A stretch of 64,000 nt of DNA from Bacteroidota bacterium (GCA_011050615.1 DRFJ01000053.1:16029-80028), one strand, 5' to 3'; counted from the first letter of the stretch, positions 43,648 to 63,989 are shown. Numbers and translations are program-made. The notes: generated by a model not told the origin, from the sequence alone.

Positions 43648-43723
43648 TTAATCAACACTTTCTCTATTTATACCGGCCGGGGTTTCAGTTTTCAGATACT
43701 TGTCCCCGGAAGGTGCCTGGCTG

Positions 43724-44650: not shown

Positions 44651-44704
44651 TAAATATCAAATTCGGTTTTTATCAATTTCTCAAATCCGGTTTGCAAAGA
44701 TAAC

Positions 44705-45490: not shown

Positions 45491-45596
45491 TATCGGGGTC
45501 TGTATTCCTTGTCTAGATTAAACTGGCAGTGATGCTATATGTATTTTAGCAGGTGTGCATCCTGATAATTTTGGACTAATTACTCATGGGGTATAA

Positions 45597-47972: not shown

Positions 47973-48055
47973 TCCTGGTTCTAATTATATTTATATCTGT
48001 CTGAATGACAGGCTAATTTTTTAGCTGAGCAAAGCTACTAAAATTAGGTTTATTC

Positions 48056-48850
48056 TCAAATAAGCAATTCAGCTTTAAAAACAGTAACTGCCTCCCCTGT
48101 TATTTCAACCCGTTTGTCCATGAGTTTGACCTTCAAAATACCTGATCTTCTGGAGGCCTGGAAAGACCTGAACTCCTTCTTGCCTGTTTTCATATTCCAG
48201 AAGGGAACAAGGGCACAGTGTGCTGATCCTGTCACCGGATCTTCAGCGATACCCATATTCGGGACAAAGCACCTGACCACAAAGTCAAATTCATGTCTTG
48301 ACGATACTGCTGTCACTATTAGTTCACCCAGCCCTGCATTAAGTAGTGTATCAGGATTCGGGCTCGCCTCAATAACTTCATCTTCCGAACGCATAAGAAC
48401 CAGCTTCCAGTTATAGTCGCTCTGGTACAATTCAAGCGCGTCAAGGCCTGTGCTTTGTCTGAATGAAGAGGGTATGTCGATTTTCCTGAGGCTGTATACA
48501 GGGAAATTCATAACTATACTCTTTCCTCTTTTTATTATGCTCAGTTCACCGGCTTTTGAATGAAATTTAATGGCATCACCCGCGCTTACAATGCCTGTTT
48601 CATAAAGTATATGAGATGCTGATAGAGTGGCATGCCCGCAAAGATCCACCTCGCTTACCGGGGTAAAATAACGTATCTCAAATTCATTTCCACGTGGCAT
48701 AACAAAAGCGGTTTCAGATAAATTCATTTCCATTGCAATGTTCTGCATCCTTTCAGGCGATGGCAAATTATCGGTAATATATACACCGGCAGGATTTCCT
48801 TTGAAAGCTTCAGATGTGAAAGCATCAACCTGATAAATAATATTTTTCAT
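48056..48850 (-). CDS. PhzF-family isomerase/epimerase-fold protein
   Basis: 264 aa. N-terminal QVDAFTSEAFKGNPAGV and DLCGHATL are typical of the PhzF family. Confidence 0.75.
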   Translation of the reverse strand: MKNIIYQVDAFTSEAFKGNPAGVYITDNLPSPERMQNIAMEMNLSETAFVMPRGNEFEIRYFTPVSEVDLCGHATLSASHILYETGIVSAGDAIKFHSKAGELSIIKRGKSIVMNFPVYSLRKIDIPSSFRQSTGLDALELYQSDYNWKLVLMRSEDEVIEASPNPDTLLNAGLGELIVTAVSSRHEFDFVVRCFVPNMGIAEDPVTGSAHCALVPFWNMKTGKKEFRSFQASRRSGILKVKLMDKRVEITGEAVTVFKAELLI

Positions 48851-49162
48851 TCGTTTAAAATTTTATAATTAACTGAATATAATTTAATTAAAAATTTGAG
48901 AACGAATGCAAGCGCTTACTCACAGTAAAACTGTTCGTGAGCTCGCTGTGCCCGGTTCGCTCCCGCATGAAAAATTTAATCATCTTCTATTGTAAAGTAA
49001 GAAATTAAATTTATTCATGCTCGTTTCATTTTTATTATTAGGTTTTTATAATGTGTATACAATATACTAAATCCTTCAAGCCTGAAAAAAGGTTTCTATC
49101 AGGGATTATAGTATCATATATAATCGTATTTTGCATATATAAATCATGAAATAAACCTGATT

Positions 49163-50206
49163 ATGACCACAGACAACAAGGAGAGATATCTTATCCCCGC
49201 TGATAAGAGGATGGTAATAAAAACCGTTGACATGCACACATGTGGTGAGCCACTGAGAATAATTACCGGAGGTTTACCCGATTTAAAGGGTAATACAATC
49301 CTGGAGAAAAGAAAGTATTTTGCTGCTAATTATGATAATATACGCACTGCATTAATGTTTGAGCCAAGGGGGCATGCCGACATGTACGGCGCCGTGTTGA
49401 CAGGACCATCCTCTGACGGAGCTGATTTTGGCGCCTTTTTTCTGCACAATGAAGGTTACAGTACCATGTGCGGGCATGCAATAATAGCCATTACAAGATT
49501 TGCCCTTGAGTCGGGTTTTGTAAAAAAAGAGGGGAAGAATCCTGTCCTGGAAATTGATGTCCCTGCCGGGAGGGTAAGTTCAAGAGCATATTTAAGGGAC
49601 GGAAAAGTGGAGAAGGTTTCGTTTCTGAATGTGCCTTCATTTCTTGTTATACAGGATGAAACACTGGAGGTGCGGGGACTGGGGCGTATTACTTTTGATG
49701 TTGCCTTCGGAGGCGCTTTTTATGCTTTTTGCGATGCCGGTGACCTTGGCCTTAATCTTGATGCCGGCGATTACAATAAATTAATCGATTACGGTAAAAA
49801 GATAAAATCGGCTGTAATGGAGAATTTCAGGACAGACCATCCTTTTGAACCTGAGCTTAGTTACCTTTACGGTACAATTTTTACCGGCAAAGCATACGAC
49901 CTTGATAACTGGAGCCGAAACGTATGTGTCTTTGCCGAGGGTGAAGTGGACCGTTCTCCTACGGGTACGGGGATAAGTGCAAGGGCCGGTCTTCATTTTG
50001 CCAAAGGAGAACTGTCAATTAACGAGCGTGTTACTATAGAAAGCATACTCGGGACTACCATGGATGTTGAGATAAAGGAAGTACTGGAGTATGGTTCTTA
50101 CAGGGCAGTGATTCCTGAAGTTACCGGTAAGGCATATTACACCGGTAGTCATGAATTCTGGATCGACAGCGATGACCCCCTGAAAGGAGGATTTATATTC
50201 AGGTAG
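49163..50206 (+). CDS. proline racemase superfamily protein, Cys/Thr type (predicted trans-3-hydroxy-L-proline dehydratase)
   Basis: 347 aa. The first catalytic position is Cys (STMCGHA). The second is Thr (VDRSPTGTGISAR), not the Cys of racemases and epimerases. Confidence 0.7.
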   Translation: MTTDNKERYLIPADKRMVIKTVDMHTCGEPLRIITGGLPDLKGNTILEKRKYFAANYDNIRTALMFEPRGHADMYGAVLTGPSSDGADFGAFFLHNEGYSTMCGHAIIAITRFALESGFVKKEGKNPVLEIDVPAGRVSSRAYLRDGKVEKVSFLNVPSFLVIQDETLEVRGLGRITFDVAFGGAFYAFCDAGDLGLNLDAGDYNKLIDYGKKIKSAVMENFRTDHPFEPELSYLYGTIFTGKAYDLDNWSRNVCVFAEGEVDRSPTGTGISARAGLHFAKGELSINERVTIESILGTTMDVEIKEVLEYGSYRAVIPEVTGKAYYTGSHEFWIDSDDPLKGGFIFR

Positions 50207-50313
50207 TAATGTAATTCTGACCCGGGTACAGAGTCGTATGAAGGCTGGAATAAAAGTCGGATCATGCTTGTCTAATCAGTAAGTGTTATTAATAAATATA
50301 AAATTTTAAACGA

Positions 50314-50703
50314 ATGAAAAAGATAATAAAAGGTATGGGAGTGCTCATTCTCTCTATGATTATGACATCTGCTTTTGGTCAGCAGAGAGGGCAGGGGATG
50401 CGCCAGGCGGACCCGGATGAGATGGCAAAGCGTCAGCTTGAACAGATGAAGGAGATCATCGAACTGAAAAATAACAAGGAAGAAAAAGCCGTAAAGGAAG
50501 TGTTTGTCAAGTATGCAAAAGAGCGGCAGAAAATGTTCAGCGAAATGGAAAGGGGAGGTGAACCCGGTGCCAACAGGGATAAAATGAATGAATTGATCAC
50601 CAGGCAGAATGAGGAATTAAAAGGTATTCTCGGAGAAGAACGCTTTAAAACCTACAATACCAGGATGCAGGAATTAAGGCGTAACAGAATGCGAAGAAAC
50701 TAG
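50314..50703 (+). CDS. small secreted helical protein (Spy/CpxP- or DUF4890-like)
   Basis: 129 aa. Signal peptide followed by a charged helical sequence rich in E/K/R/Q. Confidence 0.4.
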   Translation: MKKIIKGMGVLILSMIMTSAFGQQRGQGMRQADPDEMAKRQLEQMKEIIELKNNKEEKAVKEVFVKYAKERQKMFSEMERGGEPGANRDKMNELITRQNEELKGILGEERFKTYNTRMQELRRNRMRRN

Positions 50704-50736
50704 CAGATTCCACGCTAAATTTGCCAGCCGGGTATA

Positions 50737-51777
50737 TTATTTACCTCCGGCCCCGGCTCTTATCCTGATTAGAGTTATTTCCGGTGACATGCCAATGCGT
50801 GCGGGGACACCTATGGTGCCCAGTCCCCGGTTTACATAAAGAAAATTATTGTTACCGCCGTAAAGTCCGTTCCAGGCAGGGTACAGGAGGCTTGCCGGGC
50901 TAACTTGAAATCCAGGCAGCACTATTCCTATCTGCATTCCATGTGTATGCCCGGACAAGGTCAGTTCAATATCATCCTTATACTGAATCTCACGCAACCA
51001 GTGATTGGGATCATGGGTCAGTAAAATATTGAAATCAGCACTGTCGGTGCCCTTCAGGGCACCTTCCGTATCACCGTAATAAAGATCAGGAACCATGCCA
51101 TATGTGACTATCCCTGTAAGCGAAACTGTCAGGCTATCAATACTTATAAGGATGCTGGTGTCGTTTAGACAGGTATGATAAGAATGTTCCAGCATCTTCC
51201 TGATGATGTCAAGGTGTTCATCACAATTCTCACGGTTGTAAGCATTGCTGTAAAGACCTGTATCATGATTTCCCGGAATGGCATAAACTCCATATCTTGC
51301 CTGCAATGATCCAAGAATGCCTGTAAATGGTTCCATTTCGTTCCAGAGACAGGTGACAAAGTCACCGGTATTGACTATAATATCGGGTTTATAGGAATTA
51401 ATACTGTCAAAGACCTGTACTAATTTATCCTGGTGCCTGATGAAGCTCTTAAGGTGGAGGTCTGAGATCTGGGCAATAGTAAGTCCGTCGAGCGTGGCAG
51501 GCAGCCCATCATATTCTATTTCCACAATTTTGTATTTAAAATTAAACCTCCCGTGGAAGACGCCAATCAGGATGGTAATTACAAACAGGCTAATCAGGCC
51601 GGCAAAAACCCACCATATTACATGATGCCCTTTATTTCTTTTTCTCTTGCTCAGTGGTCTTTGTTTAATAAATTTTGTTTGAAGGGATAAAGATACTTTT
51701 TTCGCTCGGTAGTGTGGAAGCTTATGATTATCTTTTGCAAAAAAACAGATGCCAGTATGTTGAAAGTGGATTTTCAT
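50737..51777 (-). CDS. membrane-anchored metallophosphoesterase (YaeI-like)
   Basis: TM segment VIWWVFAGLISLFVITILIGVF. Calcineurin-like motifs SDLHL, GDF, GNHD and GHTH. The start is uncertain (ATG at 51777, 51897 or 51906). Confidence 0.7.
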   Translation of the reverse strand: MKIHFQHTGICFFAKDNHKLPHYRAKKVSLSLQTKFIKQRPLSKRKRNKGHHVIWWVFAGLISLFVITILIGVFHGRFNFKYKIVEIEYDGLPATLDGLTIAQISDLHLKSFIRHQDKLVQVFDSINSYKPDIIVNTGDFVTCLWNEMEPFTGILGSLQARYGVYAIPGNHDTGLYSNAYNRENCDEHLDIIRKMLEHSYHTCLNDTSILISIDSLTVSLTGIVTYGMVPDLYYGDTEGALKGTDSADFNILLTHDPNHWLREIQYKDDIELTLSGHTHGMQIGIVLPGFQVSPASLLYPAWNGLYGGNNNFLYVNRGLGTIGVPARIGMSPEITLIRIRAGAGGK

Positions 51778-52197
51778 TCTCCGGACTTTCTTCCGGCTTA
51801 TGGTCTTACCTTTGTAATAATAGGAGCCAGGCACAAAAATAACTGGATTTTCATAAGGAATAAACGCAGAAAGGCATATGAGCTTCCGGCAGGTCATATC
51901 AATCATTCCGAGGATGCTGATGATGCAGCCAGAAGGGAGTTGGAGGAAGAAACCGGGGCCTTGAAATATACTATTGAGTGTATTGCAACTTATACAGTCA
52001 GTGAAGAGGGCAGGGACAGGGCCGGAAGATTATATTATGCAGTGGTAGGGGTAATGGGGGGGGAAGTTGATGATAATGAAGTTGATGAAGTACTGTTATG
52101 CGGATCATTGCCTCAAAAATTAAGTTTTCCCTGTGTTCAGGCTGTTTTGTTTGCTTATCTTGAAAAATATCATGCCTGTCAAATAAATTCAAGGTAG
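51757..52197 (+). CDS. NUDIX hydrolase
   Basis: NUDIX box GHINHSEDADDAARRELEEETG. Start taken at MLKVDF. The ORF opens at 51712. Confidence 0.7.
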   Translation: MLKVDFHSPDFLPAYGLTFVIIGARHKNNWIFIRNKRRKAYELPAGHINHSEDADDAARRELEEETGALKYTIECIATYTVSEEGRDRAGRLYYAVVGVMGGEVDDNEVDEVLLCGSLPQKLSFPCVQAVLFAYLEKYHACQINSR

Positions 52198-53360
52198 ACT
52201 TCCTTTAGCCAGTTTTCTTCCAGCAGGGAAGCTAACTTCTTCACGACATTACGCCTTATTTCAAGACCAACCGGAAGGCTTGGATCCTGATGTGCAATAT
52301 TGATCCTAGTGCCAATAATGAACATGATCTCATCCGATTCCATAAAAAGCCTTACTATTTTATCAGCCGGTCCCTTACCAGGTTTGTATTTTTTATAATT
52401 CCCGAGAATTTCGGCTACTTTTTGAAGGCTTAATATACCTTCGGTAACAAGGTCAATTCCTTTAATAAAACTTTCAGGCGGCAGTTCGGGATCTTCAAAA
52501 ACCATGTTGTCAGTTATTTCCTTCCCTGTTTCCCTTGCGATTATATCTGCTGTAGTACCACCACTAATAATTACCTTTCCAGGAAAATCCATAACCTTTG
52601 ATGCAAGCAGCCTGTCATTGTCCTTCTCATAAGGAGGACCTGTACACAGCAGCAGCTTCCTGGGTTCCCTGAAATATATTCCGGCGCAACTTGTATCGTC
52701 CCTGGACCTGTATCCATCGTTCTTATGAGCCATGGTAACGATTTTTGCAGCCAGCTTTCCTGCTGATATTGTTGGTTCAGATGATATTATCATTCTCGAA
52801 TAACTTATTAAATTTTCCCTGCCCCATCCGGAAGGATAGCTTTCACTGCCCAGTCCGCTCTGTAAAACCCCGTCGGTGCATGATATTATCCTGTCCTCCT
52901 TCCCGGCAGTGAAAGAGCATGTTACAAGCTGCCTGCCGGCATGCCTGCCCTCAGTAAGCTCTACTTTCTCCCAGGAGGGCTCATATATTTCAGTGCCCCT
53001 GATTACAATGCACGGAGGATTGTCGAACTCGAGAATTGTAACTCTTCTGTCAATTTCAATATCAATTATGGTAAAAGTGGCATAACTTATCTTTCTCTCG
53101 GAACATATTGGCAGGGTGTTCATTATTATTGATGCAATCTTTTCCACCTCCTTGTGTTCACGAGTAAAATTTAATGCCATGGTTGCGCTCAGCGTTGCAA
53201 GAATATTTGCTTTTACGCCATGACCCATACCGTCAGAAAGTACGGCAATAATCCTTCCTTCCTCCCTGATTCTTTTTGAAAGAAAGACGTCACCGCAAAT
53301 CTTCTCTTCATAATGACTTCTCTGCTGACAGTCTACTTCTATGTGAAACTCCTTGTTCAC
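52179..53360 (-). CDS. SpoIIE/PP2C-type Ser/Thr phosphatase with an uncharacterised C-terminal domain
   Basis: 393 aa. N-terminal CGDVF...AVLSDGMGHGVKA and a later CTDGV are metal-binding PP2C/SpoIIE motifs. The C-terminal ~190 aa (GGTTADIIARETG...) matches no family I recognise. The gene lies 8 nt downstream of the PAS-type HydS-like gene. Confidence 0.7.
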   Translation of the reverse strand: MNKEFHIEVDCQQRSHYEEKICGDVFLSKRIREEGRIIAVLSDGMGHGVKANILATLSATMALNFTREHKEVEKIASIIMNTLPICSERKISYATFTIIDIEIDRRVTILEFDNPPCIVIRGTEIYEPSWEKVELTEGRHAGRQLVTCSFTAGKEDRIISCTDGVLQSGLGSESYPSGWGRENLISYSRMIISSEPTISAGKLAAKIVTMAHKNDGYRSRDDTSCAGIYFREPRKLLLCTGPPYEKDNDRLLASKVMDFPGKVIISGGTTADIIARETGKEITDNMVFEDPELPPESFIKGIDLVTEGILSLQKVAEILGNYKKYKPGKGPADKIVRLFMESDEIMFIIGTRINIAHQDPSLPVGLEIRRNVVKKLASLLEENWLKEVYLEFI

Positions 53361-53368
53361 AGGCCTTT

Positions 53369-55246
53369 TTATAAATTTTTAGTCTTATTCCCTTCCTTGT
53401 TTTCTCTGTATGATTCCAGTATTGAGTTAAGCATTTTTTCAGTCTCTGAAGCTCCTTCTCCGAGGAGGAAGCCTATTTTCTGGACCATATCAAGATTCTT
53501 TTCAATCACATCATTAATCCGTGTAATTATTTCTTCCCTCTGAACCTCAGGTGAAAACATATCACGTATTACAGCTCCGGCTATCTTGCTTTTGCTTATC
53601 GGGAAAACTGAAATATTAAGCATCTTTTCATTGAATCTTATATCCCTGTTAATAACGGATTCATTCTGCCTCAAGGCAAAGGTAAACATGTTATAAACAT
53701 TGAAGGGCAGTAATGATTTAAGATCAGCACCCTTTAACCCGGGTATGATTTCTGAAATATTTACGGCATCTTCTCCGGCAATATTTATAAAAGAGTTATT
53801 GGAATGAATTACCTTCAGGTTTTCGTCGACTATTACCACTGCCGAGGGCAGTTTCTCAAGCATTGAATTAACCGTTTTTGACGCTTCCTGGGTCAGCTCT
53901 TTCTCCCTGTGTGCAAGAGCTTCCGATTCCCGGAGGGCTTTTTGAGTCTCTGATAATTTTTTGTTTGTTATTCTCAGTTTTTCAATATACTCCTGTTTGT
54001 TTCTGATATTATATTTGTGACACATCTCGGGGATTGTTAGCCCCATGGCCACCGTCACTGCAAAATCACGGCACGATTCGTAGCCGCATGCCCTGCAGTT
54101 GTCTTCAATCAGCTTACCTGTTCTTCCTATTATACTGAGTACTTCATTAATGGCCGATTCAGGGGGTTCAGGTATTCTCTGATCATCTGCCCTGAATTTT
54201 CTTGAATAATCAAGCACACTCCACTTCTTCATATCCTTTTCCCATTGCTCCCTGTCCAGTTCCTTAAGCCTTTTATCAGTGTAGAGTCTGACCAGGTTAC
54301 GCCTCCTGTACCTTTCGCTGTGGTGATCCATTCCGGGACCCAGCAGGCAGCCCTGGCAAAAGAAAAGGTTGAAATGATGCTTTATGGTATCAATGTGACC
54401 GTGGAAATCCTTAAGAGCCTCGCTTGTGTCGTCTTTTCCGGATGCAGTAATAATGCCACTTTCCATAACGTCACGTTCTATTCCTGCGGCATATATTATT
54501 CCTGAAGGTATTGGAAATAAAGCGCCATAATTGCCATATGGAGGATCGAAATCAGAAAACTTGACTTTCTTTTCTTCTATCCCTGCTTCTTCGAAAAGCT
54601 TCCTCAGTTCAATAAAGGTGAGAACGGAATCAATTGCACTCTTGCCCTTCTCTCTCAGTGCTTCATCCTTGCTGTCGATACAGGGCCCAAGGTGGATAAC
54701 ATTGGCATCTTTTCCGTATATCTCTTTTACTATCATCCCGGTGGCTGTCATGGGAGATACAAGAGGGGCAAGATTTGAAACGAGCCCGGGATAGTATTTC
54801 TCTATCATCTTTACAATGACAGGGCAATTTGACGTGATAAAATACTTGCCCTGAGATGATTCGAACAAGTCACGGTAGCGTGCAGCAATTATATCAACCC
54901 CGAAAGAAACTTCGTGCACATGGTCAAAGCCCAGTTGTCTTACCATTGCAACAAGTTTCCTGTAATCGGTTATATCATCAAACTCTGAGGCTATGCTGGG
55001 GGCAACCAGTGCTATGTTTTTTCTTCCGTTCCCGAGTAATCTGAGCGTTTCTTCCGTTGAATCCCTGAATCTGATAGCCTTCGCCGGGCAGGCTATAAAA
55101 CATAGTCCGCAGCCAATACACCTTTCAGAAATAACAGCAGGATGTTGATTGCCTGCCTTTACCTCAATGGCCTTTGCCGGACAAACCCTGATACAACTGT
55201 ATGAATCGGTGCATTTATCCTGGTCAATGTACATGATTGGCTCCAT
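53369..55246 (-). CDS. hydS: sensory-type [FeFe]-hydrogenase homolog with C-terminal PAS domain (HydS/HfsB-like)
   Basis: 625 aa. N-terminal 2x[4Fe-4S] ferredoxin motifs (C..C..CIRVCP, CIGCGLCFIACP). H-domain with variant motifs ITSNCP (N140-C141), GPCIDSKDE and FFCQGCLLGPG. An extra CRACGYESC cluster motif is followed by a PAS-like region (LPSAVVIVDENLKVIHSNNSF...). Confidence 0.75.
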   Translation of the reverse strand: MEPIMYIDQDKCTDSYSCIRVCPAKAIEVKAGNQHPAVISERCIGCGLCFIACPAKAIRFRDSTEETLRLLGNGRKNIALVAPSIASEFDDITDYRKLVAMVRQLGFDHVHEVSFGVDIIAARYRDLFESSQGKYFITSNCPVIVKMIEKYYPGLVSNLAPLVSPMTATGMIVKEIYGKDANVIHLGPCIDSKDEALREKGKSAIDSVLTFIELRKLFEEAGIEEKKVKFSDFDPPYGNYGALFPIPSGIIYAAGIERDVMESGIITASGKDDTSEALKDFHGHIDTIKHHFNLFFCQGCLLGPGMDHHSERYRRRNLVRLYTDKRLKELDREQWEKDMKKWSVLDYSRKFRADDQRIPEPPESAINEVLSIIGRTGKLIEDNCRACGYESCRDFAVTVAMGLTIPEMCHKYNIRNKQEYIEKLRITNKKLSETQKALRESEALAHREKELTQEASKTVNSMLEKLPSAVVIVDENLKVIHSNNSFINIAGEDAVNISEIIPGLKGADLKSLLPFNVYNMFTFALRQNESVINRDIRFNEKMLNISVFPISKSKIAGAVIRDMFSPEVQREEIITRINDVIEKNLDMVQKIGFLLGEGASETEKMLNSILESYRENKEGNKTKNL

Positions 55247-55600
55247 AGTGGCTTGTTTAATTATTTGTTAATATCGAGCTTATCCTTAAGTAACTCTTCG
55301 ATATTGACCCTTTTATATCCCCGCCTATTTCATCGTTAAATGAAATTCTGGCCCTTTTTGGCAATTATCAGGGCATATCCTTATTTCATCATGGCTTTTC
55401 AATTTTATTGTTTATTTCATAACATTTCAAATTTAATCAATTAATTAATACAGATTTTAAAAAATAGAATTCCTTTTAAAGATATATTATGATACATTTT
55501 CATATAGTGTTCACATAATGAAATTTTGCATCCGGAAAGTCATAAGAATGTTAAACAATAGATTAACAGATAAATAATATTGGATTATAAGATTATTCAA

Positions 55601-55620
55601 AGTGTTAATAAAATAACACT
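55601..55620. promoter_or_regulatory. inverted repeat AGTGTTA-N6-TAACACT in the hydS/hydC divergent intergenic region (candidate operator)
   Basis: Perfect 7-bp arms. The TGT...ACA cores are spaced as in the canonical Rex operator TTGTGAAnnnnTTCACAA. 9 of the 14 specified positions match. Confidence 0.3.
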
Positions 55621-55642
55621 GTTTATTGTGTAACAATATTTA

Positions 55643-55659
55643 TATTGTTTATATTTGTA
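55643..55659 (+). promoter_or_regulatory. promoter-like 17-mer TATTGTTTATATTTGTA containing a Bacteroidota -7 box (TAtaTTTG) upstream of hydC
   Basis: It matches the TAnnTTTG consensus and lies 27 nt before the ATG at 55684. The identical 17-mer recurs upstream of rex at 63332-63348. Confidence 0.45.
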
Positions 55660-55683
55660 ATGCACGAATATTTCCATCTGAAA

Positions 55684-56157
55684 ATGGATAAAAAAGCAAG
55701 AAATACTTCAGGTAAATATAAAATTTCCGGCCGGAACGACCTGATACCTTTGTTACAGGAAATTCAGGCAGAAAAGGGATTTATTTCGCAGGAATCAATT
55801 AAGGAACTTGGCGAACTTCTAGGAATAAGTACTACAAGGATATACGGCGTGGCCAGTTTTTATGACGGTTTTCTTTTTTCACCAAAGGCCAGGGTGCATA
55901 TTCGTATCTGTAACGGATCAGGCTGCTATGTGAACAGGACTTTTAGCATTGTCGATGTTATGGCGGAAGAGCTTAAGATCAGACCGGGTGATAAATCAGC
56001 TGACGGCAGGTTCAGCATTGAGATGGTGGATTGTATGGGGGCATGTCATCTTGGACCCCTGATAGCTGTTAATGACAAATATTATACAATTGGTTCAGAA
56101 AGAGAACTGAGACAAATACTCGGGAGGATAAAGAAGGATGAGCAGGCTGGCATATAA
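55684..56157 (+). CDS. hydC: NuoE/HydC-type [2Fe-2S] subunit of a multimeric [FeFe]-hydrogenase
   Basis: Thioredoxin-like [2Fe-2S] ligands CNGSGC and CMGAC. Start taken at MDKKARN, because the -7 box at 55650-55657 lies inside the longer ORF that opens at 55645. Confidence 0.8.
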   Translation: MDKKARNTSGKYKISGRNDLIPLLQEIQAEKGFISQESIKELGELLGISTTRIYGVASFYDGFLFSPKARVHIRICNGSGCYVNRTFSIVDVMAEELKIRPGDKSADGRFSIEMVDCMGACHLGPLIAVNDKYYTIGSERELRQILGRIKKDEQAGI

Positions 56158-58099
56158 ATATAATGAGGGAGATAACAGGAGCTTCCTTATAGAAGAGGTA
56201 CTTGCTAATCGCTCCGATACTGTAAGCAGTGATGTGCAGACCGTCCTGGATAAAATTAGCAGGATCAATTCAGATATCCCTGTTATTTCAGTGTCATTCA
56301 ACAGCGGAAGTATTATTTCCGGTGCTGGTAAAACTTATGAAGCTGTTATGCAATATCTCCTTGACTATGACGTGCAGGCAGGCATTATGAAAGGTGGATG
56401 GTCTGGTGCTACCAATTTTGACCCTGTGGTAACGATCAGGCTGCCGGGTAAAAATAACTTGTTTTTCAGGAATATATATCCTGAGAAGGTTGAGAGCCTG
56501 CTGAACGGAGTGCTGCATTATGAAATCCCAACTGATGATTTCCTGGGCCAGGAGGGAACTAATAAGTTCAGAGAATGGCCCGGACTGAGCTACCTTTCCG
56601 ATCATCCCTTTATGAAGTTTCAGAAGAGATGGCTGCTGAACGAGGGTGAGTCATATGAACCTGCTGATATTGAATTATATATTGCGAACGGAGGATATAA
56701 GACACTGGTGAAAACGCTGGGTAGTTACACTATTGAAGAGGTATGTGACATTATTGAAAAAAGCGGTTTAAGGGGCAGAAGCGGAAGTGGCTTTCCCACG
56801 GGTAGAAAATGGAAATATGCCCTGGCTTCAGATTCTGAAATAAAATACCTTGTCTGCAATGCCCGTGAGAGCGATCCGGGTGCTTTTACCGATAAGATGC
56901 TGATAGAAGGGCAGCCACACAAACTGCTGGAAGGCATAGCAATAGCATCCTATGCCATGGGGGCGTCAAAGGCTTTTATTTATATACAAAACGGTGCTGA
57001 TTATACAATCTCAGTGTTAAAGGAATCCATAAAACAGGCATATGATTACGGCCTTCTGGGATATAATATATTCGACAGCGGATTCGGCCTGGATATAGAA
57101 TTAAGGATCGATCCCGGAGCGTTTGTATGCGGTGAAGAAACAGCCCTGATAGGCAGCCTTGAAGGAAGAAGGGGTATGCCACAGGTGAAACCCCCCTTCC
57201 CTTCCTCCTCGGGACTGAATAACTGTCCAACCGTTATCAATAACGTGGAGACCCTGATGAATGTACCTCTTATTATGAAAAACGGGCCTGAATGGTTCAG
57301 CGCGGCAGGAACTCCTGGCAGTAAGGGAACAAAGGTATTCTACCTCTCAGGTAAATCAGCTCTAAAGGGTATTATTGAGGTAGAGATGGGTACCTCCCTA
57401 AGGTCAGTGATAGAGTATACTGGTGAGGGCGTTGCAGGAGGCAAGGGCCTGAAAGCGCTGCTGATAGGAGGGATGTCAGGCTATCTCCTCCCCGAAAGAA
57501 AGCTTGATATTGCCATTGATTATGAAGAATTGAAGAAGGCTGGAGCAGGAATGGGGTCGGGCGGACTCGTTGTAATTGATGAGAATACCTGCCTTATTGA
57601 TCTTTCAAGATACCAGATGGAATATATGCAGAACCAGAGTTGTGGGAAATGTATACCCTGCCGTGAGGGTACATCACGAATGTTTGAAATATTATCAGGT
57701 GTGGTTAAAAAACCACCTGTTGAATCGTCAATGACAACCCTTGAGAGGTTTAAGGGTGTAATGCAGCTTGAAAATATCGCAAGTGTAATGAAGGAAACCT
57801 CCCTTTGTGGACTGGGCCAGAATGCACCCAACTTCTTTCTTTCTGTCCTTGCTGATTTCAGGGATGAACTGGAAGAACATATTTTTGACCGCCGTTGCAG
57901 GGCAAATCGCTGTCATGGCCTTCGTACCTTTGTTATCGATGTTGATAAATGCACCGGATGTACCCTGTGTGCTGATAAATGTCCGGTAAATGCCATTTAT
58001 GGGACCCGGTTGCAGCCTTTTTTTATTGTGGAGGAAAAGTGTACGGGTTGTGGCATATGCTATGATGTATGCAAGTTTGATGCGGTTTCAGTAAAGTAA
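56138..58099 (+). CDS. hydB: NuoF/HydB-type flavoprotein subunit (NAD(P)H/FMN, Fe-S) of a multimeric [FeFe]-hydrogenase
   Basis: 653 aa. GRSGSGFPTGRKW (FMN), CNARESDPGAF (NADH), CGEETALIGSLEG, SCGKCIPCREG ([4Fe-4S]), and C-terminal 2x[4Fe-4S] motifs CTGCTLCADKCP and CTGCGICYDVC. 20-nt overlap with hydC. Confidence 0.85.
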   Translation: MSRLAYKYNEGDNRSFLIEEVLANRSDTVSSDVQTVLDKISRINSDIPVISVSFNSGSIISGAGKTYEAVMQYLLDYDVQAGIMKGGWSGATNFDPVVTIRLPGKNNLFFRNIYPEKVESLLNGVLHYEIPTDDFLGQEGTNKFREWPGLSYLSDHPFMKFQKRWLLNEGESYEPADIELYIANGGYKTLVKTLGSYTIEEVCDIIEKSGLRGRSGSGFPTGRKWKYALASDSEIKYLVCNARESDPGAFTDKMLIEGQPHKLLEGIAIASYAMGASKAFIYIQNGADYTISVLKESIKQAYDYGLLGYNIFDSGFGLDIELRIDPGAFVCGEETALIGSLEGRRGMPQVKPPFPSSSGLNNCPTVINNVETLMNVPLIMKNGPEWFSAAGTPGSKGTKVFYLSGKSALKGIIEVEMGTSLRSVIEYTGEGVAGGKGLKALLIGGMSGYLLPERKLDIAIDYEELKKAGAGMGSGGLVVIDENTCLIDLSRYQMEYMQNQSCGKCIPCREGTSRMFEILSGVVKKPPVESSMTTLERFKGVMQLENIASVMKETSLCGLGQNAPNFFLSVLADFRDELEEHIFDRRCRANRCHGLRTFVIDVDKCTGCTLCADKCPVNAIYGTRLQPFFIVEEKCTGCGICYDVCKFDAVSVK

Positions 58100-58104
58100 T
58101 TATT

Positions 58105-59820
58105 ATGCTGATAACTATAGAAGTAAACAGTAAGAAACTGAAGGCTGAAAAGGGAGAGACAATTCTCAACGCCCTGAACAGGAATGGTATAAATATACCC
58201 ACTCTCTGTCGCCTCAGGGATCTTACACCAACAGGAGCATGCAGGATATGTGTGGTTGAGGTGGAAGGTGAGGATATGCTTGTCACAGCATGCTCTGAAC
58301 CTGTAAGGGAATGGATGAAGATAGAAACTCATTCCCCCAGGGTTATCAGAGCGAGAAAGGCCATAGTTGAGTTGCTGCTGTCAAATCATCCTGACAATTG
58401 CCTTTATTGCGACAGAAATCTTAACTGCGAATTACAGAGAATAGCCAGTGAACTCAATATCCGGGAACGCAGATTAAGTGGCAAAAAAATGACTCTCAAG
58501 CTGGACCAGTCCAGTCCTGCCATAACAAGAGAATTGTCAAAATGTATCCTATGTGGCCGATGTGTTCGTATATGTGAGGAAGTGGTGAAAGTAAATACCC
58601 TGGATTTTATTGGAAAGGGAAGGGCCATACATATAGGTACCGCAATGGATAAGGATTTTAATTTCTCAAGTTGTATACATTGTGGTCAGTGTCTTAATGT
58701 ATGCCCTACCGGTGCCCTTCATGAAAAATACAATATAGGAGAGGTCCAGGATTATCTTACAAAGAAAGATACACTGAAGGTAATTCAGTTTTCTCCACTC
58801 GTGGCCTTCTCGCTTGCCCGGGAGATGGGCTTAAAATATTCTCAGAACTTTGATAAAAAGCTGAATGAGGCGCTTTACCGGATAGGATTTGACAGGGTTT
58901 ATTGCACAGGTTTTGGTTCTGATATAATGATAAATGAACTGACGGAAATGCTGGAAAATAACAAAACCGGTAAATTGAATGATACTATATATACATCGCA
59001 TTGCCCTGCCTGGGTAAAATATGCAGAACAATTTATGCCCGGTATTCTTGAAAAGCTATCTGGATTGAAATCGCCTCAACAAATTACAGGAGCAGTAATT
59101 AAAGCACTGGTCCCCGGTATCGAGGCAGTAAACCCCGAAAATATATATTCTGTATCAGCTACCCTTTGTACGGCGGCCAAATATGAAGCCCGACGGGATG
59201 CGATGACCAGGAAGGGAATAAGTGACATAGAAACCATACTTACAGTGCGTGAACTGGCGCAGCTTCTAAGGCTTTACGGTATAAATATGGATGTGCTTGA
59301 TGGAAGGAATGTTGATGAACCAATGAACCTTGCCAGTTTCTCGGCATTAATGACCGAGATTTCCGGGGGCCTGACCGAGTCAGTTGTAAAAATTATTGCT
59401 CAGAATAATGGCATAGAGCTCTCTTCCTCTGATATGAGAAAATTAAGAGCAGCAGGTGATTTCAGGGAATTGATGGTAAGAGCAGGTGAGCATGAGTATA
59501 ACTTTGCAGTCATTGATGGTCTTGCAGGCCTGGATATGCTCAGGAGTAAAATGCGATCGGTCCATTATGACATGGTTGAAATAATGGTCTGCCAGTCAGG
59601 TTGCGTGAATGGAGGCGGAGTTAACAGTGATGAGAATGGTGAGTCGGTCAGAGACCGTCTTAAGATGATATACAAAAGTGAAGAAAATTCTGCCATTAAA
59701 ATGCCAGTGGATAATCCGGCAGTTAGAAATTTTTATGAAAAATGGCTTCCGCTTGATAAAGACATATCAGATAAAAAGATATTCAGAAACAAATATTCAA
59801 AAAAGGACGTCCTTCTATGA
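58105..59820 (+). CDS. hydA: [FeFe]-hydrogenase large (H-cluster) subunit, M3-type architecture, with non-canonical H-cluster motifs
   Basis: 571 aa. N-terminal [2Fe-2S] ligands (C35..C46..C49..C63), HPDNCLYCDRNLNC, CILCGRCVRIC and CIHCGQCLNVCP. The H-domain reads TSHCPAW (H299-C300), KSPQQ, TLCTAAKYE (C355) and EIMVCQSGCVNGGG (C496, C500). Confidence 0.8.
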   Translation: MLITIEVNSKKLKAEKGETILNALNRNGINIPTLCRLRDLTPTGACRICVVEVEGEDMLVTACSEPVREWMKIETHSPRVIRARKAIVELLLSNHPDNCLYCDRNLNCELQRIASELNIRERRLSGKKMTLKLDQSSPAITRELSKCILCGRCVRICEEVVKVNTLDFIGKGRAIHIGTAMDKDFNFSSCIHCGQCLNVCPTGALHEKYNIGEVQDYLTKKDTLKVIQFSPLVAFSLAREMGLKYSQNFDKKLNEALYRIGFDRVYCTGFGSDIMINELTEMLENNKTGKLNDTIYTSHCPAWVKYAEQFMPGILEKLSGLKSPQQITGAVIKALVPGIEAVNPENIYSVSATLCTAAKYEARRDAMTRKGISDIETILTVRELAQLLRLYGINMDVLDGRNVDEPMNLASFSALMTEISGGLTESVVKIIAQNNGIELSSSDMRKLRAAGDFRELMVRAGEHEYNFAVIDGLAGLDMLRSKMRSVHYDMVEIMVCQSGCVNGGGVNSDENGESVRDRLKMIYKSEENSAIKMPVDNPAVRNFYEKWLPLDKDISDKKIFRNKYSKKDVLL

Positions 59821-61802
59821 ATTCGCTCGGGAGGAACAGGCAATTGGTTTATACACGCAGGGAACTTTGCAGGACATGCTATACATGTGTGAGGGAGTGT
59901 CCGGCCAAAGCTATAAGGATAGAAAACGGACAGGCAGAGGTAATACATGAAAGGTGTATTGCGTGTGGAAATTGCACCAAGGTTTGCAGCCAGGGAGCAA
60001 AAGTCTTTATGTGGACAAAGGATATAGTGGGGGAAATACTCAGATCAGGAAATACTGCAGCGATAATAGCACCGAGCTTTCCTGCAGAATTCAACGACCT
60101 CCCGGACCACAGGATCCTTGTTTCAATGATAAGGACCCTGGGCTTCAGTTATGTAAGTGAGGTTGCCTTTGGCGCTGATCTTGTAGCCGACCGCTACCGT
60201 CGGCTACTGAATAATTCCGAAGGGAAGTATTATATTTCCTCTGACTGCCCTTCAATATCAAGATTTATTAAATACTATCATCCTAACCTGGCGGCTAACC
60301 TGGCCCCGGTGGTTTCTCCGATGGTAGCGATGACCAGGGCCATGAGGAAGCTGCACGGGAAGGACCTTAAAATTGTATTCATAGGGCCCTGTGTGGCTAA
60401 AAAAGATGAGAGTACAGAGGTTGATGAGGCAATTACTTTTACTGAACTGAGAAGCATGTTGGCAGACAAAGGCATAAGCCCGGAGAATGTTGAACCAACT
60501 GAATTTGACCCTCCCCTGGGAGGTAAAGGTGCTATTTTCCCTGTAGCCAGGGGCTTGCTTCAGACAGCAGGTATTAATGATGATGCCGTTTCAGGAAATA
60601 TAATAGCTGCTGAAGGAAGAACAGCCTTCCAGGAGGCCATTAAAGAATTTGAGGAAGGCCAGATTCATGACCAGCACCTTGAACTGCTCTGTTGTAAGGG
60701 TTGTGTTATGGGACCAGGATTTACCGACCGCGGAAAATATTACAACCGCAGAGCTCATGTAAGCAGCTATGCCCGTAAAAAACTCGAGTCAACGGATCAT
60801 GGGCAATGGAAGGAATATTTCATCAGAATGAATGATCTTGACCTGTCAGTTAAGCATGAACCGGATGACAGGAGACTTGAAAGCCCCGGAAATATTGAGA
60901 TTGAAAATGTCCTGAGACTGATGGGAAAAACCAGTATCAAAGATCATCTGAATTGTGGTGCTTGTGGATATGAGACATGTATTGAACATGCTGTTGCAAT
61001 AAGCAAGGGCCTGGCCGAGGTGGAGATGTGCCTGCCATTTACAATAGAACAGTTACACAATTCTGTAAATGATCTGGCTCTTTCCAATGAAAAGCTGAGT
61101 TCAATGAAGCAGGCGCTCAGACAATCAGAAAAGCTTGCCCACATGGGTCAGCTATCTGCAGGTATAGCTCACGAACTGAATAATCCTCTTGGCGTGGTAA
61201 TTATGTACAGTAATATTTTACTGGAAGAATGTGCAGAAGATGATCCTTTAAGGGATGATCTGAACCTGATAACCGAGCAGGCGGCCAGATGTAAAAAAAT
61301 TGTATCAGGTCTGCTCAATTTTGCAAGGAAGAGCCAGGTAAACCATGATTATACCAACCTGAACGAAGTCGTTAAGCAAAGCCTTGAGTCCCTTATAATA
61401 CCCGAAGGCATTGATTTAATAACGGAGGATAGATCGGATAATCCTTCTGCCATGATGGATAGCGAACAGATGATACAGCTTATCTCGAACCTGGTTAAAA
61501 ACTCGGTGGATGCAATGAAGGGAAGGGGGAAGGTGAAAATTACCCTGGAGGATACCGATAAAAACGTCAAAATGAAGATATGGGATGACGGACCCGGCAT
61601 AGACGAAGATAAAAGAGAAAAGATATTTGAGCCATTCTTTACTACCAAGGAGACAGGTAGCGGAACCGGACTTGGGCTGGCAACTGCCTATGGTATAGTG
61701 AAGATGCATAAGGGCCAGATAAAGGTCGATTCAAACAGCAATCCGGGAAAAGGCCCTACATGGACACAATTTATTATAAGCATACCAAGGACAAATGAAT
61801 AA
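59817..61802 (+). CDS. sensory-type [FeFe]-hydrogenase homolog fused to a histidine kinase (HisKA + HATPase_c)
   Basis: 661 aa. N-terminal ferredoxin motifs ([23 protein letters not shown]). H-domain variant motifs ISSDCP (D143-C144), GPCVAKKDE and [12 protein letters not shown]. Extra motif CGACGYETC, a coiled coil, H-box [13 protein letters not shown], and N/G boxes ([21 protein letters not shown]). ATGA overlap with the hydA stop. Confidence 0.8.
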
Positions 61803-62187
61803 AAAGAAGACAGTTTTTGTTGTTGATGATGATCCGGATTACCTTTTTCAAACGGTAGTCCACCTTGAAAAAGCAGGGTATAATGTGATAAGTGCTGTTA
61901 GTCAGAAAGAGGCAGAGGATATTATAGATACTGTAAAACCGGATATTGCACTGCTTGACCTCATGATGGAACAGGATGACAGTGGTTTTATACTTTGTTA
62001 TAAACTGAAGAAAAAATATCCGGACCTTCCTGTAATAATTGCTACCTCTGTTTCTAAGGAAACAGGCCTGTCTTTCGGCCTGGATTCAGAGGAGGAAAGA
62101 AGGTGGATAAAGGCAGATGCTTACCTTGAAAAGGGAGTAAGAGCTGAACAGCTAAACGATGAAATTAAACGCCTGTTAAAAATATGA
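61795..62187 (+). CDS. single-domain response regulator (REC only)
   Basis: 130 aa. DDD at 11-13, phosphoacceptor in ALLDLMM, IIATS, and conserved Lys in YLEKG. 8-nt overlap with the preceding kinase gene. Confidence 0.85.
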   Translation: MNKKKTVFVVDDDPDYLFQTVVHLEKAGYNVISAVSQKEAEDIIDTVKPDIALLDLMMEQDDSGFILCYKLKKKYPDLPVIIATSVSKETGLSFGLDSEEERRWIKADAYLEKGVRAEQLNDEIKRLLKI

Positions 62188-62188
62188 G

Positions 62189-63322
62189 ATGGCTGAATTA
62201 AAGGTATTGATAGTGGATGATGAAGCCGGAATCAGATCTGGCGTCAGCAGGATATTGAACAGGTTCCGGGTTACATATCCTTTTATGGATGAAGCCTATA
62301 CCTATAAGGTGCTTGAGGCTGAGACAGGTGAAAAGGGCCTTGAGATAATAGACAGTGAACAGCCGGATATAGTGTTGCTGGATAATAAGCTGCCCGGAAT
62401 TTCCGGCGTTGAAGTACTTGACTATATTAAGCAGAAAAATTATGACATTGTTGTAGCAATGATTACCTCATATGCATCGCTCGACGTGGCATTGAGGGCT
62501 ACAAGGGACGGGGCCACCGATTTTATACCCAAACCCTTCACACCGCAGGAACTTAAATCCTCGATTGAGAATATAACAAAGCAGCAATATCTTAAAAGGA
62601 TAACAAGCAGGATGAAGGAGGAAGGGAAAAAGATCCGGTTCCGGTTCCTGTCGGTTCTGTCGCATGAGCTTAAGTCACCACTGAATGCGGTGGAAGGCTA
62701 TCTGAATATGATGAGAGACAGGGAGGCTGGGAACGATATAAACGATTATGCTGAGATGATTGAAAGATCAATACAGCGTATCCAGGGAATGCGTACCCTG
62801 ATTATGGATCTGTTGGATTTTACCAAGATAAAACTGGAAGTGAAGAAAGATAAAGTGGTTGAATTAGATCCTGCCTTGCTTATGACACAATGTGTAGAAA
62901 CAATAAATCCACTTGCCATACAGAAAGATGTCTCAATAGTAATTGAAAAAAAATCAGATGTTATTATTTCAGCCGATGAAGAGGATATGAACATCATTTT
63001 CAATAATCTGCTTTCAAATGCGGTAAAATATAATAAAGAGGGAGGACAGGTTGTTATCACAATCGACAGGGAAGGGAACGATGCCGTAATGGAAGTGAAG
63101 GACACTGGTATTGGAATCAGCAGTGAAGACCAGCAGGTTCTGTTTAATGAGTTCGTGCGTATTAAAAATGATAAAACACGTAATATTGCCGGAAGCGGAC
63201 TGGGTTTGTCGATCGTGAAAAAGATTGCGGATTTGTATCAGGGTTCGATAACAGTTGCTAGCAGGCCTGATGAAGGAAGTGTTTTTAAATTGAAACTTCC
63301 AGTAAGGCAGGAAAAAGAATGA
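62189..63322 (+). CDS. hybrid REC - HisKA - HATPase_c histidine kinase
   Basis: 377 aa. N-terminal receiver (VDDE, LLDNKLPG, FIPKPF). H-box LSHELKSPLNAV. N/G boxes (LLSNAVKYN, DTGIGI, GSGLGLS). No TM segment or sensor domain. Confidence 0.85.
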   Translation: MAELKVLIVDDEAGIRSGVSRILNRFRVTYPFMDEAYTYKVLEAETGEKGLEIIDSEQPDIVLLDNKLPGISGVEVLDYIKQKNYDIVVAMITSYASLDVALRATRDGATDFIPKPFTPQELKSSIENITKQQYLKRITSRMKEEGKKIRFRFLSVLSHELKSPLNAVEGYLNMMRDREAGNDINDYAEMIERSIQRIQGMRTLIMDLLDFTKIKLEVKKDKVVELDPALLMTQCVETINPLAIQKDVSIVIEKKSDVIISADEEDMNIIFNNLLSNAVKYNKEGGQVVITIDREGNDAVMEVKDTGIGISSEDQQVLFNEFVRIKNDKTRNIAGSGLGLSIVKKIADLYQGSITVASRPDEGSVFKLKLPVRQEKE

Positions 63323-63331
63323 TAATCATTC

Positions 63332-63359
63332 TATTGTTTATATTTGTATAGTTTACAAA
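63332..63359 (+). promoter_or_regulatory. rex promoter-like element: same 17-mer as upstream of hydC, overlapping inverted repeat TTTGTA-N5-TACAAA
   Basis: The 17-mer TATTGTTTATATTTGTA (63332-63348) includes a TAnnTTTG -7 box 23 nt before the rex ATG. The palindrome arms lie at 63343-63348 and 63354-63359. Confidence 0.4.
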
Positions 63360-63368
63360 ATCATAAGG

Positions 63369-63989
63369 ATGAAAAAACTACCAGGAAAAACTGTTGAAAG
63401 GCTGAGTGGTTACCGCAGGAACCTTCTGGGCTACCTGGCTGCTGGTAATAACTACATATATTCCCATGAACTGGCTGCCCTGTTGCATATAACTGCAGTG
63501 CAGGTAAGAAGAGACCTGATGCTCATAGGGTATTCGAGTGTTCAGAAAAAAGGTTATGATGTAAAGGAGCTTATAGATACTATTGGTACGATAATTGATT
63601 CCGAACAAGGCCAGAATATTGCAGTAATAGGTATAGGAAACCTTGGACGTGCCATAACTTCCTACTTCAAGGGCAAAAGATCCAAGCTCAATATTGTTGC
63701 TGCATTCGACAATGATCCCCAGAAAGTTAACAGGGTAATAGCAGGAGTCAGATGCTATCCCGTTGAAAAGATGGAGCATATTATAAACGAACAGAATATT
63801 ACCATTGCTTTACTGACAATACCTCCCGATTTTGCCCGACCTGTCGCTGATGCAGCAATAAGGGCCGGGATAAAAGGCATACTAAACTTTACAACTGTTC
63901 CCCTGAATGTACCACTAAATGTCTATCTTGAAGAGTATGACATGATTACATCAATTGAGAAAGTCGCATATTTTGTGAAAGAAGGATAA
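63369..63989 (+). CDS. rex: redox-sensing transcriptional repressor Rex
   Basis: 206 aa. N-terminal winged-helix RLSGYRRNL...SHELAALLHITAVQVRRDL and Rossmann motif VIGIGNLGRA. Confidence 0.9.
   Translation: MKKLPGKTVERLSGYRRNLLGYLAAGNNYIYSHELAALLHITAVQVRRDLMLIGYSSVQKKGYDVKELIDTIGTIIDSEQGQNIAVIGIGNLGRAITSYFKGKRSKLNIVAAFDNDPQKVNRVIAGVRCYPVEKMEHIINEQNITIALLTIPPDFARPVADAAIRAGIKGILNFTTVPLNVPLNVYLEEYDMITSIEKVAYFVKEG

Follow-up and report, generated by a model that had tools for sequence, protein, structure and literature searches.

A predicted single-chain sensor kinase with a group C [FeFe]-hydrogenase-type input, encoded directly after hydA in a Bacteroidota bacterium

Introduction

Can an [FeFe]-hydrogenase-type domain and the histidine kinase that reports on it be united in one polypeptide, and what would such a protein sense and control? 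The question is raised by a 64,000-nucleotide stretch of DNA from a Bacteroidota bacterium (GCA_011050615.1 DRFJ01000053.1:16029-80028), referred to here as the window, in which the open reading frame directly after the hydrogenase gene hydA encodes a soluble sensory-type [FeFe]-hydrogenase module joined to a histidine kinase core. This protein is here called HydS-HK (59817-61802, + strand; 661 amino acids). To our knowledge, no [FeFe] H2 sensor has been experimentally linked to its signalling output. A 2026 study of TamHydS calls the identification of the partner proteins of TmHydS and TamHydS the critical next step (PMC13104023).

A single-chain sensor-kinase with receivers encoded next door would offer a direct read-out, as 32P autophosphorylation under H2 versus Ar, and the abundance of the family in Bacteroidales would make it a practical model for H2 sensing by fermenters. 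Based on the analysis presented here, HydS-HK is read, with a probability of about 0.62, as a cytoplasmic H2/redox-responsive sensor kinase with a group C HydS-like input, which would control the adjacent hydrogenase.

Results

In HydS-HK, the iron-sulfur and hydrogenase-type domains precede the kinase in a single reading frame. The initial annotation, made from the sequence alone, had described a 661-amino-acid open reading frame whose ATG overlaps the hydA stop, and the two codons are indeed joined in an ATGA at 59817-59820. The protein begins with a ferredoxin-like domain (59850..59999, +; Fer4_10, Fer4_9, and Fer4 at residues 12-61, Pfam) containing two [4Fe-4S] motifs, Cys18/21/24/28 and Cys47/50/53/57; these eight Cys, the codons of which were checked, show no variation in 115 aligned homologues. 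The predicted H-cluster-binding H-domain follows (60054..60716, +; Fe_hyd_lg_C, residues 80-300, E 3.6e-42), and after it a further [4Fe-4S] motif of the form Cx2Cx4Cx16C (60948..61037, +; PF04060 FeS, residues 378-407, E 2.8e-8). The spacing of the last motif is exact (Cys380, 383, 388, and 405), and its four Cys are invariant in the family alignment. The Cx2Cx4Cx16C motif characterises the sensory hydrogenases of groups C and D (PMC8163306). No transmembrane-like segment is present in HydS-HK, the maximum Kyte-Doolittle 19-residue mean being 1.35.

All of the motifs quoted in the initial annotation were located: ISSDCP at residues 140-145, GPCVAKKDE at 190-198, a third H-domain motif at 290-301, CGACGYETC at 380-388, and the H-box motif at 449-459. 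The structural reading it proposed, a HydS-type H-domain and a complete kinase core in one polypeptide inside a hydrogenase operon, is likewise upheld. In searches of the PDB, the N-terminal half matches Thermotoga maritima HydA, HDCR HydA2, and CpI, and the kinase half matches the kinase cores of CckA, ThkA, ZraS, and LvrB (E down to 1e-32). An AlphaFold2 model, built from a 115-sequence alignment, has a mean pLDDT (predicted local distance difference test) of 69, and values fall below 50 in the ferredoxin domain and the linker; it was used solely to confirm the two folds via Foldseek, not for mechanism, and its H-domain matches CpI, CbA5H, and TmHydA.

Several features place HydS-HK in the HydS-type group C: the H-domain, the two N-terminal clusters, the C-terminal cluster motif, replacements of group A residues, and a HydABC-type neighbour. 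Downstream of the C-terminal cluster, where the M2f architecture has a PAS domain, there is no Pfam match to PAS in HydS-HK; HisKA and HATPase_c are found there. By its predicted domains, HydS-HK is a kinase-output variant of group C and not a strict M2f protein.

Residue equivalences in the H-domain were taken from the HMMER alignment to CpI PDB 6GLZ, an engineered C299D variant that scored highest among the CpI entries when the PDB was searched. In this alignment, CpI C300 and C355 correspond to Cys144 and Cys192, K358, E361, and F417 to Lys195, Glu198, and Phe241, A230-P231-S232 to Ala85-Pro86-Ser87, and S323-P324 to Ser167-Pro168. For the third motif, the initial annotation was right that it is present, and its choice of the first Cys of the 'CC' pair as the C499 equivalent was rejected: because only the second Cys of the pair is conserved in the wider family, with which the HMMER alignment agrees, Cys293 and Cys296 are the equivalents of C499 and C503, in C-x2-C spacing with one residue fewer between them. 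The H-cluster ligand positions Cys144, Cys192, Cys293, and Cys296, together with Lys195, Glu198, Ala85-Pro86-Ser87, and Phe241, are invariant in 115-121 homologues, as mapped on CpI or TmHydA. This conservation and that of the kinase boxes described below support the proposal that the H-domain is loaded with an H-cluster that informs the kinase.

Four positions of the H-domain are non-canonical, with Asp143 replacing C299, Gly190 replacing M353, Leu291 replacing M497, and Met169 replacing Q325. In addition, S319 is Ala163, E282 is Asp125, R286 is Arg129, and the position of E279 lies inside a five-residue deletion of HydS-HK. An extra Cys, Cys292 (window 60690-60692), stands just before the ligand Cys293, at the position of CpI A498; it is kept by 120 of 121 proteins of the clade and by the kinase-fused representatives closest to them, and the wider family is without it. 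The replacement of M353, M497, Q325, and C299, and an additional Cys beside a ligand, could be signs of a degenerate H-domain lacking a functional [2Fe] subcluster, so that O2, NO, or iron-sulfur status would be sensed via cluster damage, like in other Fe-S sensor kinases. In a survey of Hydrogenedentota, H-cluster motifs proved difficult to locate in certain group C1 proteins (PMC11406978), and the PAS-type paralogue in the window has no equivalent of K358. However, HydS-HK itself keeps K358, E361, and all of the ligands, and TmHydS and TamHydS, with similar replacements of M353, M497, and C299, still bind an active H-cluster. A degenerate domain is therefore considered quite improbable.

Asp143 (codon GAC, 60243..60245, +; codon checked) does occupy the position of the proton-relay Cys, as had been annotated, and is present in 121 of 121 close homologues and in all 80 genome loci compared below. 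Among 45 kinase-fused representatives of 50%-identity clusters outside the Bacteroidales clade, none has Asp here; Pro (14), Thr (11), Ala (8), Ser (4), and others are found, which marks Asp143, on this sampling, as a derived and fixed character of the clade. In sensory hydrogenases generally, the position is Ala in about 43 %, Cys in 17 %, Pro in about 10 %, and Ser in about 10 % (PMC10055695). Being ionisable, Asp is an atypical replacement.

The initial annotation had stated that Cys-to-Asp variants of catalytic enzymes stay active, which the literature confirms (PMC3485046; PMC10055695). In saturation mutagenesis of CaHydA, efficient turnover was kept by C298D only, with a kcat about 2-fold lower (PMC3485046), and retention of activity by Cys-to-Asp variants is stated for prototypical enzymes generally (PMC10055695). 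Asp143 was considered as a sign that the group A proton pathway has been restored, and this was rejected; because S319 and E279 are missing, the pathway is not rebuilt by Asp143. It might still be proposed that HydS-HK is a metabolically relevant hydrogenase, in which Asp143 is a working proton relay and the kinase a secondary, self-regulatory appendage, given that the C-to-D change alone keeps high turnover in CaHydA (PMC3485046) and that the pocket of the co-encoded HydA is more damaged than that of the sensor. Yet the group A relay is otherwise missing, the characterised relatives are all slow, and the architecture and downstream receivers are those of a signalling protein, making a metabolic role very unlikely indeed.

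The kinase half consists of a HisKA (DHp) domain (61143..61331, +; residues 443-505, E 2.7e-13) and a HATPase_c domain (61458..61790, +; residues 548-658, E 2.9e-25). The predicted phospho-acceptor, His452 (codon 61170-61172, +), lies in H-E-L-N-N-P-L and is kept in 80 of 80 genome loci; the HELNN of this H-box is presumably compatible with the E/DxxN/T phosphatase motif of HisKA kinases. In the HATPase_c domain, the N box (Asn558, Asn562), the G1 box (Asp590-x-Gly592-x-Gly594), the F box (Phe604-Phe607), and the G2 box (Gly616-x-Gly618-x-Gly620) were all identified, with codons checked, and these residues are all invariant in the family alignment. HydS-HK thus has both the H-box His in a DHp domain and the N, G1, F, and G2 boxes of the HisKA family.

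Between the two halves, a helical linker (61038..61142, +; residues 408-442) joins the last cluster Cys to the dimerisation helix of the kinase. The stretch from Cys405 to His452 is among the most conserved of the protein, with many invariant positions between 406 and 449, and is predicted to be helical, at low confidence, in the AlphaFold2 model. A second HydS-type sensor of 625 amino acids, encoded divergently in the window (53369..55246, -; Pfam), has a weak PAS-like C-terminus and shows 37 % identity to HydS-HK over the stretch between the first cluster motif and the end of the linker helix (BLASTP). The identity runs to 'LAH' (residues 440-442), ten residues before His452, after which one protein continues into a kinase and the other into a weak PAS-like output. 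That the linker is common to both proteins up to the divergence of their outputs is counted in favour of the sensor kinase interpretation. The paralogue matches PAS families only at E 0.01-0.08, with nothing at the default threshold; at the C299 position it has Asn140, for which orthologues have Asn, Ala, Thr, or Val, at the K358 position Ser192, and in the third motif a single C-x2-C.

A search with residues 1-415 of HydS-HK over 1.84 billion cluster representatives (HMMER) returned 808 proteins at E <= 1e-30. The best 150 of these 808 were classed by phmmer against the kinase and PAS regions of the window, which gave 45 with a kinase core like that of HydS-HK and 54 with a C-terminus like that of the PAS-type paralogue. 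Pfam was used for 37 of the longer proteins among these 150; 15 have Sigma54_activat/AAA_lid_14, three GGDEF, and one HisKA_3 (P0146), and ten of the 37 also match HTH_8. Since the same body is fused to sigma-54 activator and GGDEF outputs, the Fe-S/H-domain body is, as far as domain matches can tell, a general input module, and that it behaves as an input domain elsewhere is again in favour of a sensory role in HydS-HK. The sigma-54 and GGDEF fusions would be one-component H2-to-transcription or H2-to-cyclic-di-GMP transducers. Proteins with other outputs on a body of two Fer4 motifs, H-domain, and PF04060 come from other lineages and include P0160, P0162, P0163, P0180, P0183-P0185, and others.

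The fusion was checked across homologues and genomes, since a misassembled or frameshifted join of two genes had been named as a way in which the annotation could be wrong. Among the matches listed there are more than 100 full-length homologues of the same architecture; the alignments used 115 or 121 sequences. A genome scan, with one genome per species, gave 139 relatives; the 80 loci are the best 80 among them. A protein 100 % identical to HydS-HK is present in public databases on nine contigs, the longest of 226 kb. Each of the 120 best homologues has the domain set of HydS-HK; nearly all are 645-680 amino acids long, and they lie on contigs of up to 4.99 Mb. The 80 loci, at 57-90 % identity, have near-complete query coverage except for two contigs that end inside the gene, and nearly all of their hosts are Bacteroidales or Rikenellaceae metagenome-assembled genomes. 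The same full-length fusion occurs throughout, there is no sign of an artefact, and no point in favour of one was found; an assembly or frameshift error joining two genes was rejected, its probability being negligible. On the basis of these homologues, the HydS-HK fusion is common across Bacteroidales.

The gene lies in a nine-gene locus, consisting of a PP2C gene and the PAS-type HydS on the minus strand and, divergently on the plus strand, hydC, hydB, hydA, HydS-HK, a stand-alone receiver, a receiver-HisKA-HATPase gene, and rex. For comparison of loci, gene calls were also made on one closed 4.99-Mb contig. The nine-gene order and orientation recur in nearly every one of the 80 loci that is on a long-enough contig, and the spacing of the genes is operon-like. 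The distance from hydA to HydS-HK is mostly 11-12 nt in relatives, the 4-nt overlap being found in this window and in the closest relative only.

Directly downstream of HydS-HK is the stand-alone receiver of 130 amino acids (61795..62187, +; Response_reg), the start of which overlaps the HydS-HK stop by 8 nt. Its Asp55 is present in 77 of 77 relatives and its Thr84 in 76 of 76, and it is always the next gene downstream of HydS-HK, so it is a likely phosphotransfer partner, to judge from gene order and conservation. A second kinase with an N-terminal receiver input follows (62189..63322, +; receiver-HisKA-HATPase_c, 377 amino acids, Pfam), with conserved position, Asp65 in 75 of 75 and His159 in 79 of 79 relatives; it is usually 1 nt from the stand-alone receiver among related loci. 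The last gene of the locus is rex, encoding an NADH/NAD+-sensing transcriptional repressor (63369..63989, +; NF003995, 197 bits versus a cut-off of 126), also conserved in position. In 25 of 65 loci, rex overlaps the receiver-kinase gene by 4 nt and is therefore part of the sensor operon there; in this window the two are separated by 46 nt (63322-63369).

In the divergent promoter that separates the PAS-type sensor from hydC, a stretch of about 230 bp contains three Rex-box-like sites (55408-55425, 55602-55619, and 55619-55636), each with two mismatches to TTGTTA-N6-TAACAA. These are three of the eight two-mismatch matches in the whole window, and the exact palindrome is found in 32 of 61 orthologous intergenic regions. 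We take TTGTTA-N6-TAACAA to be the clostridial Rex operator consensus, which would make the promoter sites candidate Rex operators.

The window stops at rex, and the region downstream was therefore viewed in relatives. In a 90%-identical relative (L001, 14189-19604), rex is followed by ribF (FAD synthetase), hydG (TIGR03955, 491 bits), a putative regulator of the CPF_0552/TM1266 family, and hydE (TIGR03956, 319 bits); in L081 (13298-17764) the same kinds of genes follow rex by Pfam, including radical SAM genes of the hydG/hydE type. H-cluster maturation is thus encoded in the same neighbourhood in L001, and this position of the maturases downstream of rex is counted for an H-domain that receives its cofactor.

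The locus also bears on the alternative that HydS-HK senses redox state or electron flux, the kinase reading the reduction of the [4Fe-4S] chain as set by ferredoxin or by docking to HydABC as an extra 'T' subunit, with the H-domain mainly a scaffold or electron sink. In its favour, the protein has four Fe-S sites in addition to the [2Fe] site, its gene invariably follows hydA directly, and a 2024 survey counts such proteins as a BfuT subunit of the cluster (PMC11406978). With Rex also encoded, redox sensing recurs in the locus, and the C-terminal cluster of TamHydS is unresponsive to H2 (PMC13104023). Against this, all of the residues that hold the [2Fe] site are invariant (the four Cys, Lys195, Glu198, Ala85-Pro86-Ser87, and Phe241), the maturase genes are linked in relatives, and an ionisable residue is strictly kept beside the amine position, which is hard to explain for an idle site. 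A sensor of redox state or electron flux instead of H2 is regarded as unlikely, though it deserves consideration.

The remaining genes of the locus are those of the hydrogenase and the phosphatase. The large subunit, hydA (58105..59820, +; Pfam and motif census), belongs to a HydABC-type (NuoE/NuoF-linked) [FeFe] hydrogenase, of which hydB (56138..58099, +; Complex1_51K, NADH_4Fe-4S, and Fer4; TIGR01959) encodes the NuoF-like flavoprotein subunit and hydC (55645..56157, +; 2Fe-2S_thioredx, E 1e-38) the NuoE-like [2Fe-2S] subunit. The hydC call begins at a TTG at 55645, there are in-frame ATG codons at about 55661 and 55686, and the true start is probably the internal ATG near one of these positions. 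The PP2C/SpoIIE-type serine phosphatase gene (52179..53360, -; SpoIIE, E 1.1e-14) is co-oriented with the PAS-type sensor gene, and both are conserved in position.

The presumed catalytic subunit has an atypical active site. The P1 motif of the window hydA is TSHCPAW, with His at CpI C299, and its P2 motif is TLCTAAKYE, with the changes M353T, P354L, and K358A; E279, E282, S319, and M497 are kept. Among 72 HydA orthologues in the related loci, the canonical pocket of Cys with Lys-Lys is found in 30, Ala with Met-Lys in 29, and Ser with Lys-Lys in eight; His with Ala-Lys is found in just one, that of the closest relative. In the window, therefore, Lys358 and an ionisable residue at 299 are kept by the sensor, whereas Lys358 is lost in the presumed catalytic HydA. 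For hydrogenase specialists the altered HydA pocket is possibly the more surprising feature of the locus, and such pockets raise the question of whether these HydABC complexes are normal hydrogenases.

A further reading connects the three H-domains of the locus. With Asn or Ala at the C299 site of the PAS-type sensor, and His or Ala at C299 and Ala or Met at K358 in HydA, the kinase-fused sensor might be the one that truly turns over H2, its Asp143 relay setting an H2 threshold, the PAS-type sensor responding to another range or signal, and HydABC being controlled at two thresholds. Were this so, the sensor would be the best-preserved H2-reactive site in the locus. This is put forward as speculation, and is doubtful.

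Scans of the surroundings by Pfam and family models found no [NiFe] hydrogenase domain in neighbouring genes; no DNA-binding response regulator, hydF, or other hydrogenase gene was present in the 19 open reading frames scanned outside the locus, about 20 further upstream having been left out. The genes upstream (41722-51906) look unrelated to the hydrogenase locus. They include genes for sulfate activation (a CysN/CysC-like fusion and a PAPS_reduct protein), an inositol monophosphatase, an NAD-dependent epimerase, UDP-glucose dehydrogenase, a PhzF-like protein, a proline racemase family protein, and a metallophosphoesterase.

Discussion

The sensor kinase interpretation of HydS-HK can be set out as a sequence of steps. 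H2 would react at an H-cluster held by Cys144, Cys192, Cys293, and Cys296, around which Lys195 and the Ala-Pro-Ser loop are conserved, and Asp143 would substitute for the usual proton-relay Cys. A redox or conformational change of the H-domain and the three accessory [4Fe-4S] clusters may then travel along the conserved helix, which would run from two residues past Cys405 into the dimerisation helix bearing His452. This would shift the balance between autophosphorylation and phosphatase activity that acts on the receivers encoded next door, the stand-alone receiver and the receiver-kinase. Together with Rex and the second sensor, the PAS-type HydS with its PP2C, the final effect may be that expression or activity of hydCBA is tuned to H2 pressure and redox poise.

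A number of observations weigh against this proposal. In TamHydS, H2 fails to reduce the C-terminal cluster, which the authors of that study regard as an apparent refutation of cluster reduction as the central event in signalling (PMC13104023). The group A proton pathway is not conserved beyond Asp143, so that in the relay the first position alone is protonatable, E282 and R286 aligning with Asp125 and Arg129. The AlphaFold2 model, which is poor in the ferredoxin domain and linker, gives no structural support to the step of transmission along the helix. The nine-gene locus encodes no DNA-binding response regulator detectable by Pfam, and the literature search found no paper joining autophosphorylation with [FeFe] H-cluster work.

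As a kind of protein, HydS-HK is not new, because HydDB, a study of Elusimicrobia, and a 2024 survey of BfuT proteins all describe the architecture; the family is already in genome surveys. The HydDB classification divides group C into C1 'histidine kinase-linked (putative)', C2 chemotactic, and C3 phosphatase-linked (PMC5037454). The study of Elusimicrobia noted a group C hydrogenase joined to the ATPase domain of a kinase; its gene lies upstream of those for a trimeric group A enzyme, close to Rex, and Ignavibacterium and Caldithrix have related proteins (10.1101/765248). Zheng and Huang (2024) report that 'BfuT' sensors carry a PAS or a histidine-kinase domain, and that the kinase type (best HydDB hit WP_006928132.1) occurs in sub-type V clusters, organised as in Caldithrix abyssi (PMC11406978). 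The same survey describes two bfuT genes in the cultured Perlabentimonas gracilis, Tenuifilum thalassicum, and Williamwhitmania taraxaci, the first lying upstream of bfuC and the second downstream of bfuA, and calls the significance unclear (PMC11406978); this two-bfuT layout in Bacteroidota is the layout of the present window. Likewise, Petrimonas mucosa has a gene labelled 'C1, histidine kinase-linked' near its hnd genes (PMC7768429). Subgroup labels are inconsistent, the Petrimonas protein being called C1 (PMC7768429) and kinase-domain BfuT proteins C3 (PMC11406978). As a discovery the present result is therefore modest, the architecture and the two-sensor locus being already in surveys, and what is added is residue-level detail: the invariance of Asp143, the conserved linker, and the atypical HydA, with Asp143 and the HydA pocket being unmentioned in PMC5037454, 10.1101/765248, and PMC11406978.

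The closest known proteins are the other kinase-fused members of group C (HydDB C1, sub-type V BfuT), for example those of Caldithrix abyssi, Hydrogenedentota, and Elusimicrobia lineage V. They have the same order of two [4Fe-4S] clusters, H-domain, C-terminal cluster, and kinase, and, like HydS-HK, are encoded directly downstream of trimeric hydrogenase genes with Rex nearby. There is no categorical difference from these proteins, and HydS-HK is a further member, from uncultured Bacteroidales.

The only biochemically characterised sensors are TmHydS and TamHydS, which bind an H-cluster, show slow turnover, and are considered to be sensors (PMC8163306; PMC10055695). The initial annotation had stated that characterised HydS proteins carry PAS outputs only, which is true of TmHydS but not of TamHydS, which is without PAS (PMC8163306). 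TmHydS (Thermotoga maritima; group C, M2f) and RaHydS (Ruminococcus albus) share with HydS-HK the two [4Fe-4S] motifs, the H-domain, and the Cx2Cx4Cx16C motif, have C299, M353, and M497 altered, and are encoded with a HydABC-type hydrogenase; Gly in place of M353 is shared with TmHydS. In contrast to these two, HydS-HK has a kinase instead of a PAS output, Asp instead of Ala at 299, and Leu instead of Ser at 497. TamHydS (Thermoanaerobacter mathranii; group D, M2e) resembles HydS-HK in its three-domain sensor body without PAS and in Leu at M497. It adjoins a bifurcating hydrogenase, and a histidine-kinase-like ATPase is encoded there by a separate neighbouring gene, whereas in HydS-HK the kinase is fused. 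In TamHydS, moreover, protons take a group D-specific route through E252/E289.

In the HoxBC system, H2 is detected by a slow hydrogenase that signals to a histidine kinase, and the kinase in turn controls the hydrogenase genes. The resemblance of HydS-HK to this HoxBC/HoxJ/HoxA [NiFe] system (HydDB group 2b, 'histidine kinase-linked'; PMC5037454) is functional only: the metal site and fold of HoxBC are unrelated, and its sensor and kinase are separate polypeptides that communicate via a PAS-like domain, whereas in HydS-HK the predicted sensor and the kinase form a single chain.

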